DNA of 64,000 nt from Puniceicoccales bacterium (GCA_031255005.1 JAIRTH010000001.1:768-64767); one strand, 5' to 3'. Positions 60,189 to 61,501 are shown, numbered from the stretch's first letter. A program made the numbers and translations. The notes: a model not told the origin generated them from the letters alone.

Positions 60189-61122
60189 TCTGGAAATCGG
60201 AAAAAATGTACTATCCATCGATCCGGATCGACTGGCCCAGGCGGTGATAGTTCATTGCGATGATATGTATTCTGCTATAAAAGCTTCTAGACAAATGGCC
60301 GAAGCTTTGCTTTCGGCGAGGTGCCATAGTAATCCTGATCTGTTTGAGCTTAGGCCCATGGGTAAAGGAGGCTTGATAAAGGTCGAGCAGGTCAGAGGCT
60401 TGATATTAGAGCTACAGAAATCGCCCTATTCTTCGAAGCGTAAGGTGGCGATTATCTATGAGGCCGATCGACTGGGAGCAGCTTCATCGAATGCATTGTT
60501 AAAAACCTTAGAAGAGCCGCCGATGGATTCGTCCATCATTTTGGTTACTGGAAAATATTTTAGTTTGCTAGCCACAGTGCGAAGTAGGTGTGGATTAATT
60601 CGGCTGCCTAAGGATTCTGATATGATTGTTAATAGATGCCTTATTCAGTGGCTTGATGGAATTTCTGATTGGGTTCGTTTATTGATCCAAGGAAGGCTAT
60701 CATTGGAAGCCGGAATTGTTCATTGCTATCTGATTATTGATCAATTGGAAGAAGTTTTGGATTCTCTGGTGAAAGAATTTGTTAAAGGAAATAACCCTTC
60801 TACTCTTTCTGCTTCTTTTACTTTTTCTGATGGAGAAGATGTCGATAATGTCGCTGGAGATCAGCTAAAAATAGCCCAAAACAAAGTTTTTTCTGCGATG
60901 GAAATCCGATTATCTGAAATTTTTTATGCCATTGGAAATAATAAATTATTGTCAAGCTTCATAAAAGTCATAGAATCTCTAGAAAATGCTGCAAGAGCTA
61001 CTGAGATGAATAGTAGCATGGCCGGAGCTCTGGAAAGCGTTTTATTATTGTGTTTAAAATACTTAGCCGAGGTAGGATATGACGAATGCGAGGTTTCGAG
61101 AAATAGTTCAGACATGGCTTGA
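60160..61122 (+). CDS. holB: DNA polymerase III delta' subunit
   Basis: 'SNALLKTLEEPP', 'TVRSRC', and position after tmk. The start overlaps the tmk 3' end. Confidence 0.8.
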   Translation: MMKSRENFFNLEIGKNVLSIDPDRLAQAVIVHCDDMYSAIKASRQMAEALLSARCHSNPDLFELRPMGKGGLIKVEQVRGLILELQKSPYSSKRKVAIIYEADRLGAASSNALLKTLEEPPMDSSIILVTGKYFSLLATVRSRCGLIRLPKDSDMIVNRCLIQWLDGISDWVRLLIQGRLSLEAGIVHCYLIIDQLEEVLDSLVKEFVKGNNPSTLSASFTFSDGEDVDNVAGDQLKIAQNKVFSAMEIRLSEIFYAIGNNKLLSSFIKVIESLENAARATEMNSSMAGALESVLLLCLKYLAEVGYDECEVSRNSSDMA

Positions 61123-61501
61123 TTCCATAAATAATGTAAAAAACGAAGAGTTTACCATCGATGATACTGGTAGGTGTAAATTTTTTTTCAGAAATATGGA
61201 GTGCATTTTGGAAGTCCCCGATGGTAGCGACAGATTTTTCATATATGCGCCGCTGATGGAGGTGCCGAGCAATTCAGATGGACTATTATATTACGCGTTA
61301 TCGCTGAATTTGTTTCAAATAGAAACCGTGGGTACGACTTTAGCCATCGATAGGTCGGCAAATTTTTTCGTACTGTCCTATCATGCCCTGATATCATCCA
61401 TCGACTCTGAGAAGTTTCAAAAGCTGCTTGGGGCTTTTATTCATACTGCTCAAGCCATTAGTAAAAAACTGTTTAAAGAATGTAAACGCCAATCTGCCTA
61501 G
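61079..61501 (+). CDS. Class I T3SS chaperone-like protein (CesT/SycE/Slc1-type pattern)
   Basis: 140 aa. 'EFTIDDTGRCKFFF..MECILEVPDGSDRFFIYAPLMEVPSN...LLYYALSLNLFQ...TTLAIDRSANFFVLSYHALISSID.EKFQKLLGAFIHTAQ' matches the helix/beta-strand consensus of CesT-family chaperones as I recall it. SD 'gaggtagg' lies before the ATG, and the gene begins 44 nt inside holB. Confidence 0.6.
   Translation: MTNARFREIVQTWLDSINNVKNEEFTIDDTGRCKFFFRNMECILEVPDGSDRFFIYAPLMEVPSNSDGLLYYALSLNLFQIETVGTTLAIDRSANFFVLSYHALISSIDSEKFQKLLGAFIHTAQAISKKLFKECKRQSA

Follow-up and report, generated by a model that had tools for sequence, protein, structure and literature searches.

A CesT-family class I type III secretion chaperone gene that overlaps holB and probably serves neighboring orphan proteins in a Puniceicoccales genome

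We analyzed a 64,000-nt stretch of DNA from a Puniceicoccales bacterium (JAIRTH010000001.1:768-64767), referred to here as the window, which carries a run of co-oriented genes near its right-hand end (Table 1). The first of these genes is tmk, whose 209-residue product, read from the ATG at 59559, corresponds to NCBI MDR0351095.1 and whose coding sequence overlaps that of holB. The holB product aligns with TIGR00678 at E 3e-29, which is below that model's cut-off, and is listed at NCBI as "hypothetical protein LBH49_00370" (MDR0351096.1) and at JGI as "DNA polymerase-3 subunit delta'". The third gene, cesT, encodes a type III secretion system (T3SS) chaperone and is followed by two candidate effector genes (eff1 and eff2) and an additional open reading frame (orf153). 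In GenBank, the source of the chaperone and its neighbors is a Puniceicoccales bacterium MAG, with locus tags LBH49_00365-00385.

Table 1. Features of the window, numbered from its first nucleotide.
Feature	Position	Strand	Remarks
sctR, 5' part (FliP family)	1..198	-	66 aa, cut by window end; Pfam FliP E 4.9e-17
sctQ-like T3SS cytoplasmic-ring gene	195..1097	-	Pfam FliMN_C E 1.6e-13
tmk (dTMP kinase)	59559..60188	+	first gene of co-oriented run; Pfam Thymidylate_kin E 3e-46, TIGR00041 E 9e-51
holB (DNA polymerase III delta' subunit)	60160/60163..61122	+	Pfam DNA_pol3_delta2 E 1.5e-25
Candidate sigma-70-like promoter, TTGTCA-16 nt-TAGAAT	60949..60976	+	in holB, ~100 nt upstream of cesT; hypothetical
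Shine-Dalgarno of cesT, GAGG	61069..61072	+	inside holB; 6-nt spacer to ATG at 61079
cesT-family class I T3SS chaperone gene	61079..61501	+	ATG start; 140 aa, 16.1 kDa, pI 5.67
Shine-Dalgarno of eff1, GGAGG	61519..61523	+	copy at 62887..62891, duplicated with gene start
Candidate effector 1 (eff1)	61531..62724	+	397 aa, pI 8.3, orphan; 29 nt after cesT stop
Relic of cesT 3' end, including TAG	62846..62869	+	24 nt; left edge of tandem duplication before eff2
Candidate effector 2 (eff2)	62899..63234	+	111 aa, pI 10.1, N-module only; NCBI LBH49_00385, hypothetical
orf153	63253..63714	+	153-aa orphan ORF in variable stretch past eff2; no family matches

An earlier, sequence-only reading of this DNA had picked out the 140-residue reading frame and had placed its Shine-Dalgarno motif and start codon 44 nt within the 3' end of holB. 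Both are present as described: the frame opens with ATG on the + strand, and the holB stop at 61122 leaves the first 44 nt of cesT inside holB. Orthologues with 84-89% identity are found on three other contigs (L001/L002, L004 and L005), and comparison of the four copies gave pN values of 0.06-0.13, pS values of 0.72-0.87 and dN/dS ratios of ~0.02-0.06 or lower. Because pN is low while synonymous sites are saturated across the four orthologous copies, these values indicate that cesT is a coding sequence and not a chance ORF. The JGI gene call (P0002) is only 101 residues long, beginning at Met40 and omitting codons 1-39. Substitutions within these 39 codons are mostly synonymous and at third positions, which supports the 140-residue start, and the first 16 codons show synonymous differences only in four genomes. 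NCBI MDR0351097.1 is exactly the 140-residue protein, and GenBank already labels the ORF as a "CesT family type III secretion system chaperone". The protein has an acidic core (pI 4.74 for residues 1-128), and its last 12 residues are basic.

Class I T3SS chaperones are small (about 15 kDa), acidic, homodimeric proteins with an alpha-beta-beta-beta-alpha-beta-beta-alpha fold, and they bind the N-terminal ~20-100 residues of secreted substrates, known as the chaperone-binding domain. The window's protein had been proposed to be a CesT/SycE-like member of this group, with CesT and YbjN named as the Pfam families to be compared. The first of these was matched, with the CesT model (PF05932) aligning to residues 23-126 over model positions 13-117 of 119 (E 7.6e-14; 52.3 bits vs a gathering cut-off of 22). 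YbjN (PF10722) gave no Pfam match at E ≤ 1, and E. coli YbjN is a distant fold neighbor only (Foldseek rank 45, TM 0.58). An exhaustive HMMER search returned 356 relatives of the chaperone at E ≤ 1e-3; the nearest homologues are mostly without names, and those that are named come from Verrucomicrobia and Photorhabdus. One stretch had been likened to SDRLYVYAPLL of a chlamydial chaperone, but the pattern S....(L/F)Y.PL is no more than the consensus of 65 CesT-family homologues. When a profile from 65 homologues was compared with the PDB, the best match was ExsC (E 3e-9), followed by SrcA, VecA, CesT and SicP.

We used the 65-homologue alignment to build an AlphaFold (AF2) model of the chaperone, which has a pLDDT of 95.5 and the topology a-bbb-a-bb-a. 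The DSSP elements of this model (H3-21, E32-37, E40-45, E52-61, H67-76, E87-91, E96-104 and H110-139) agree with the class I secondary-structure parse that had been made by eye. In a Foldseek search of the PDB, about the top 30-38 ranks were essentially all T3SS class I chaperones, and ExsC, SchA, CesT, SicP, SrcA, SycH, SycN/YscB, SycE and SpcU were matched with a probability of 1.00 and TM scores of 0.6-0.8. The scores were 0.71-0.80 for ExsC, SchA, CesT, SicP and SrcA, and SycE is structurally more remote (TM 0.61-0.64) than ExsC, SicP and CesT (0.72-0.80). Sequence identity to the solved structures is 11-18%. By every testable measure of family membership, the 140-residue protein is a CesT-family class I T3SS chaperone, and we infer that it dimerizes. 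The family is well known, and the window's protein, already annotated as belonging to it, is a new and distant member.

Apparatus genes had been reported at the other end of the window, ~60 kb from cesT, and we found a sctQ-like gene and a fragment of sctR at that position. The best NCBIfam match of the sctQ-like product is SpaO_YscQ (E 7e-17, below that model's cut-off). These two genes are the part of the apparatus seen here, the rest lying outside the window, and their presence at the left window end indicates that the genome has a T3SS. They adjoin pfk and a ribosomal-protein cluster, and a 244-residue ORF beside sctQ gave nothing meaningful in family and PDB searches. Our literature search found no paper that mentions Puniceicoccales together with type III secretion. 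According to PMC3459982, NF-T3SS occurs in Verrucomicrobia, and the related Chlamydiales typically have their T3SS loci scattered. A passage in PMC3260263, citing Hefty & Stephens 2007, gives the number of scattered chlamydial T3SS operons as ten.

The overlap of cesT with holB recurs in related genomes. It measures 44 nt in the window and in L004, where the chaperone is 89% identical to the window's, 23 nt in L001/L002 (84% identical), 17 nt in L009 (41%) and 11 nt in L008 (35-38%). The reading frame is kept beside holB in all of these relatives, which favors the sequence-only interpretation. The tmk gene lies upstream of holB in the window, L001/L002, L004 and L008, and the L009 contig ends within holB. 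Between L008 and the window, HolB is only 23% identical and Tmk 46%. The chaperone gene had been described as grafted onto tmk-holB, which is apt as a description but not as a recent event: the overlap is common to chaperones that are only 35-41% identical and must therefore be old. In a neighbor-joining tree, the holB-linked chaperones form one clade (bootstrap 130/200), of which the overlap is characteristic, and the linkage would have arisen once, in the ancestor of this clade. Other homologues, which are similarly or slightly more distant, occur in non-holB contexts: GNAT genes accompany two of them, one standing with mutS ahead of P0006 and one overlapping P0009, and P0010 sits among unrelated genes. 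A search of genome contigs with HolB patterns taken from the variable N-terminus returned only an unrelated Clostridiales locus, and a chaperone alignment gave no match in a set of metagenome contigs that is evidently without the relevant samples. An Rfam scan of 55-64 kb detected a single tRNA and nothing at the holB/cesT junction.

Within the window's clade, purifying selection acts more strongly on the chaperone than on either of its neighbors. Amino-acid identity is 84-89% for the chaperone, 62-68% for HolB and 79-80% for Tmk, with corresponding dN/dS ratios of ≤0.06 for cesT, 0.16-0.18 for holB and 0.07-0.09 for tmk. The retention of holB linkage over deep divergence, even where no effector gene is adjacent, raises the possibility that this CesT-fold protein has a housekeeping role outside secretion, for example as a clamp-loader partner, which would explain the linkage. 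The fold is indeed found outside T3SS, in cyanobacterial Tll0839 (2plg) and in YbjN, both of which are among the Foldseek matches. We nevertheless consider such a role very improbable: the Pfam match is to CesT and not to YbjN, the nearest structures are all bona fide T3SS chaperones, T3SS genes are present on the same contig, orphan proteins with a common N-terminal module follow cesT in the window's clade, and homologues at a similar distance occupy unrelated contexts.

We searched the + strand from tmk to eff1 for terminator-like sites and found none apart from one weak match inside tmk. Because no predicted terminator separates the genes, which overlap or lie 29 nt apart, tmk-holB-cesT-eff1 co-transcription is likely. 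Translation of cesT could plausibly be coupled to that of holB if the ribosome-binding site is unwound in the process. Coupling by reinitiation is less plausible because the overlaps are 11-44 nt, and an overlap of 44 nt is long for termination-reinitiation coupling.

It is also conceivable that cesT is expressed mainly from a promoter of its own in the 3' part of holB and that the overlap is a by-product of genome compaction. The best + strand match to a promoter consensus in 58.7-64 kb (10/12) does lie ~100 nt upstream of cesT, although promoter-like matches are no commoner in this region than in shuffled sequence (24 vs 18.7±5.1). Its -10 hexamer is invariant in the four loci compared (window, L001, L004 and L005), but the conserved bases double as codons for conserved HolB residues. 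L008 has a 10/12 match at a similar distance from cesT, and L009 has no comparably placed site. In L005, cesT is preceded by no more than the final ~270 nt of holB, and this holB fragment (dN/dS ~0.2), which includes the candidate promoter site, itself stands behind another effector paralogue. The arrangement may be a recent cassette duplication, in which case signals sufficient for cesT expression would lie within those ~270 nt, or it may be a chimera of the assembly. Together, the candidate promoter and the L005 arrangement leave room for a possible independent cesT transcript. We give appreciable weight to expression mainly from such a promoter but lean against it, and an internal promoter would in any case be compatible with read-through from tmk-holB.

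The genes downstream of cesT provide the candidate cargo. Residues 1 to ~90 of eff1 constitute an N-terminal module (N-module) that is shared with other proteins encoded beside cesT. The eff1 protein has no family or PDB match, and database searches find nothing but its own entry (NCBI LBH49_00380, hypothetical). Modeled alone from its single sequence, it gave an uninformative AlphaFold prediction with a pLDDT of 41. Over ~90 residues, eff2 is 53% identical to the eff1 N-terminus. A direct repeat (D2), 89% identical between 61478-61558 and 62846-62926, spans the region before each gene. Because a duplicated ribosome-binding site and a 24-nt relic of cesT precede eff2, we attribute eff2 to tandem duplication of a segment beginning inside cesT. 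We take eff2 to be a truncated paralogue or, alternatively, a small substrate of the secretion system. Its dN/dS relative to eff1 is ~0.87, and values for the N-module between paralogues range from 0.47 to 0.87, as for a fast-evolving sequence. The product of orf153 has no similarity to the other effector candidates, and its membership in the chaperone-effector system is uncertain.

Related loci contain similar genes. Two proteins of 395 and 716 residues, both with the N-module, are encoded downstream of cesT in L001, and the proteins flanking cesT in L005 also carry it. Outside the N-module, the cesT-adjacent proteins are divergent or unrelated, with 19-28% identity. In all of the DNA examined, an HMM of the N-module matches only ORFs that flank cesT genes. 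These are the ORF that directly follows cesT in the window, L001, L002 and L005, and one remaining match, the paralogue that precedes the L005 cassette. The downstream L005 copy, which was not used to build the model, is matched at E 1e-7. Only 56 downstream codons are available in L004, and there is no match there. When eff1 and the N-module profile were used to look for homologues, only the window's own two proteins came back, and eff1, eff2, orf153 and the L001 effectors had no meaningful match in PDB and family searches. The effector candidates lack a Sec signal and are basic, hydrophilic proteins.

When proteins encoded beside a class I chaperone have an N-terminus in common but are unrelated elsewhere, this is the classical mark of a secretion signal and chaperone-binding domain, as in the SycE/YopE, SicP/SptP and CesT/Tir pairs. 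We base the proposed chaperone-cargo mechanism on this signature. The orphan proteins that follow cesT and have the common ~90-residue N-module are probably cargo of the chaperone. The gene for a class IA (dedicated) chaperone adjoins that of its single cognate effector. Here, candidate cargo genes adjoin cesT in the window, L001, L002 and L005, and each genome has at least two paralogous candidates. The holB-linked chaperones of L008 and L009 have no effector-like neighbor and are followed by a gene of opposite orientation. Cargo adjacency is therefore not ancestral.

This distribution is also compatible with a broader function, that of a general (class IB-like, multi-cargo) or regulatory protein in the manner of CesT/Spa15/InvB or ExsC, for which the adjacent effectors would be only one set of clients. 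Since no effector-like gene follows the chaperone in L008 or L009, the ancestral holB-linked protein may have been of this kind, and the occurrence of holB-linked orthologues without an adjacent cargo gene favors such a role for the present one. Strong conservation of the chaperone set against rapid turnover of its cargo, and at least two paralogous clients per genome, point in the same direction. ExsC, which is the best match by both sequence profile and fold, has a small secreted partner and titrates a regulator for as long as that partner stays in the cell. Its likeness to the window's protein amounts to only 14-15% identity, however, and does not single ExsC out among class I chaperones, and no ExsD/ExsA-like or CsrA-like partner was noticed in the window. 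If the chaperone is multi-cargo or regulatory, eff2 could act as a secreted regulatory decoy, as LcrQ/YscM do for SycH/YopH. The gene is kept as an intact ORF and annotated as such, and the SycH-YscM2 complex is among the structural neighbors of the chaperone, but a dN/dS of ~0.87 relative to eff1 fits a decaying duplicate equally well. We judge a general or regulatory role to be rather unlikely, if well worth keeping in view.

With good confidence, we favor the interpretation that cesT encodes a class I CesT-family T3SS chaperone of a host-associated Puniceicoccales bacterium, that the chaperone serves the adjacent N-module proteins, and that its gene is co-transcribed with tmk-holB. The bacterium would carry a scattered, non-flagellar T3SS. 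A chaperone dimer would bind the ~90-residue N-module of eff1, eff2 and their relatives in sister genomes, keep the bound proteins secretion-competent and pass them to the sorting platform and ATPase. With overlapping genes and no predicted terminator in between, cesT would be transcribed as one unit with tmk-holB, possibly with an additional promoter inside holB, and the passage of ribosomes through the end of holB would make the cesT ribosome-binding site accessible. The effector genes would have been added, and then duplicated, later in the window's own sub-lineage. A more far-reaching proposal is that the holB overlap is functional, tying the supply of chaperone, and thus secretion competence, to the expression of replication and nucleotide-synthesis genes, with an ancestral chaperone that was general or hierarchy-setting. 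If this were true, type III secretion activity would track how an intracellular or host-attached bacterium is growing or replicating, and lineage-specific effector cassettes would have come later onto the ancestral holB-linked chaperone. We regard this proposal as improbable.

The locus offers a clean, annotated chaperone-cargo arrangement in a Puniceicoccales lineage. The small orphan family of eff1, eff2 and their relatives provides the likeliest T3SS effectors of this lineage, recognizable by the ~90-residue N-module. T3SS accessory genes in Verrucomicrobiota can sit within core housekeeping operons, as they do in Chlamydiae, and genes embedded in this way matter when secretion systems and effectors are sought automatically in MAGs. 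No concept is changed by these observations, and the identity of the chaperone was already in GenBank. What is added here is the deep conservation of the holB overlap, the unusually strong constraint on the chaperone, and a lineage-specific effector family with a common N-module. The cesT gene itself is an ordinary family member in an unusual but conserved genomic position.

Among known systems, EPEC CesT, Salmonella SicP and SrcA (STM2138), and Vibrio VecA share with the window's protein the same family HMM, size, acidic core and fold (TM 0.71-0.76), and the window's gene, like theirs, adjoins cargo genes, in its case candidate ones. The window's protein differs in being only 11-18% identical to these chaperones and in coming from a Verrucomicrobiota MAG. 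Moreover, its gene is embedded in a tmk-holB housekeeping pair, which it overlaps, and not in a pathogenicity island or T3SS cluster. Pseudomonas aeruginosa ExsC (PDB 3kxy, ExsC-ExsE) is the closest by profile and by fold, with TM scores of up to 0.80, and pairs with a small secreted partner of which eff2 could be an analogue, but at this level of identity the likeness is generic to the fold. Yersinia SycH (PDB 1ttw, 4gf3) is a weaker structural match (TM about 0.61) that serves YopH together with the short N-terminal paralogues LcrQ/YscM. The pairing of eff1 (397 residues) with eff2 (111 residues) parallels that pattern, and any regulatory role drawn for eff2 from the parallel is speculative. 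In the Chlamydiales, which are PVC relatives, T3SS genes are dispersed among housekeeping genes, and the window presents the same picture, with sctQ-sctR beside pfk and the ribosomal-protein cluster, and cesT beside holB; to our knowledge, an overlap between holB and a chaperone gene has not been described in Chlamydia.

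The product of holB, the gene whose 3' end overlaps the chaperone gene cesT, is a very divergent HolB. NCBI names it 'hypothetical protein LBH49_00370' and its score falls below the curated cut-off in every holB NCBIfam model; JGI and Pfam recognise it as DNA polymerase III delta', and its identity among close relatives is only 62-68%. We compared synonymous differences between cesT and the adjacent tmk and holB genes, and found that their proportion was higher in cesT (0.72-0.87) than in its neighbours (0.54-0.67) for the same genome pairs, even though the CesT protein is better conserved than the tmk and holB products. 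Possible sources of this excess are recombination, codon composition, or the use of copies that are paralogues of one another.

In L005, a related contig with a close cesT orthologue, holB is reduced upstream of cesT to its last ~270 nt (a 90-aa ORF), and this fragment is itself preceded by an effector paralogue, giving the order effector paralogue, holB fragment, cesT. The dN/dS of the fragment is ~0.2, which is holB-like. The arrangement represents either a duplicated cassette of holB 3' end, cesT and effector or an assembly chimera.

Coordinates of the features in the window and in related or more distant contigs
Feature	Contig	Position	Strand	Note
sctQ-adjacent orphan ORF	window	1110..1844	-	244 aa; directly upstream of sctQ
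Orphan ORFs	window	55224..57314	-	351 + 341 aa
tRNA gene	window	57454..57527	+	Rfam RF00005, 64 bits
Small paralogues	window	57667..58152; 58260..58781; 59154..59339	-	
Small paralogues	L001	6663..8179	-	
Small paralogues	L004	31..579	-	
tmk and holB, compared region	window	59559..61122		
holB	window	60163..61122	+	
cesT, compared region	window	61079..61501		
eff2	window	62899..63234	+	111 aa
Cassette contig	L005	1..2226		JGI sample 3300042624
GNAT + chaperone gene	L006/L007	5242..6414		
GNAT + chaperone gene	L012	5495..6465		4-nt overlap

Divergently oriented from tmk lies a lineage-specific family of small paralogues; every member starts with a signal-peptide-like segment and ends in a tail rich in Lys and Arg. 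Pairwise identity within the family is 25-45%, one copy amounts to only a 61-aa fragment, and no member has a match in Pfam or NCBIfam. Therefore, fast-evolving multi-copy genes lie on both flanks of the tmk-holB-cesT unit. The tRNA gene is placed among orphan genes upstream of tmk. None of the three orphan ORFs has a family or PDB match, and the one beside the sctQ-like gene for the T3SS cytoplasmic ring may be an unrecognised T3SS component.

At two unrelated, more distant loci, a GNAT acetyltransferase gene is directly followed by a CesT-family chaperone gene, a pairing that may be recurrent.

Downstream of cesT, the candidate effector gene eff2 encodes the effector N-terminal module and nothing else, with a dN/dS of ~0.87 relative to its neighbour eff1. 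In this, eff2 relates to eff1 much as LcrQ/YscM relate to YopH in Yersinia; alternatively, it may be a truncated duplicate.
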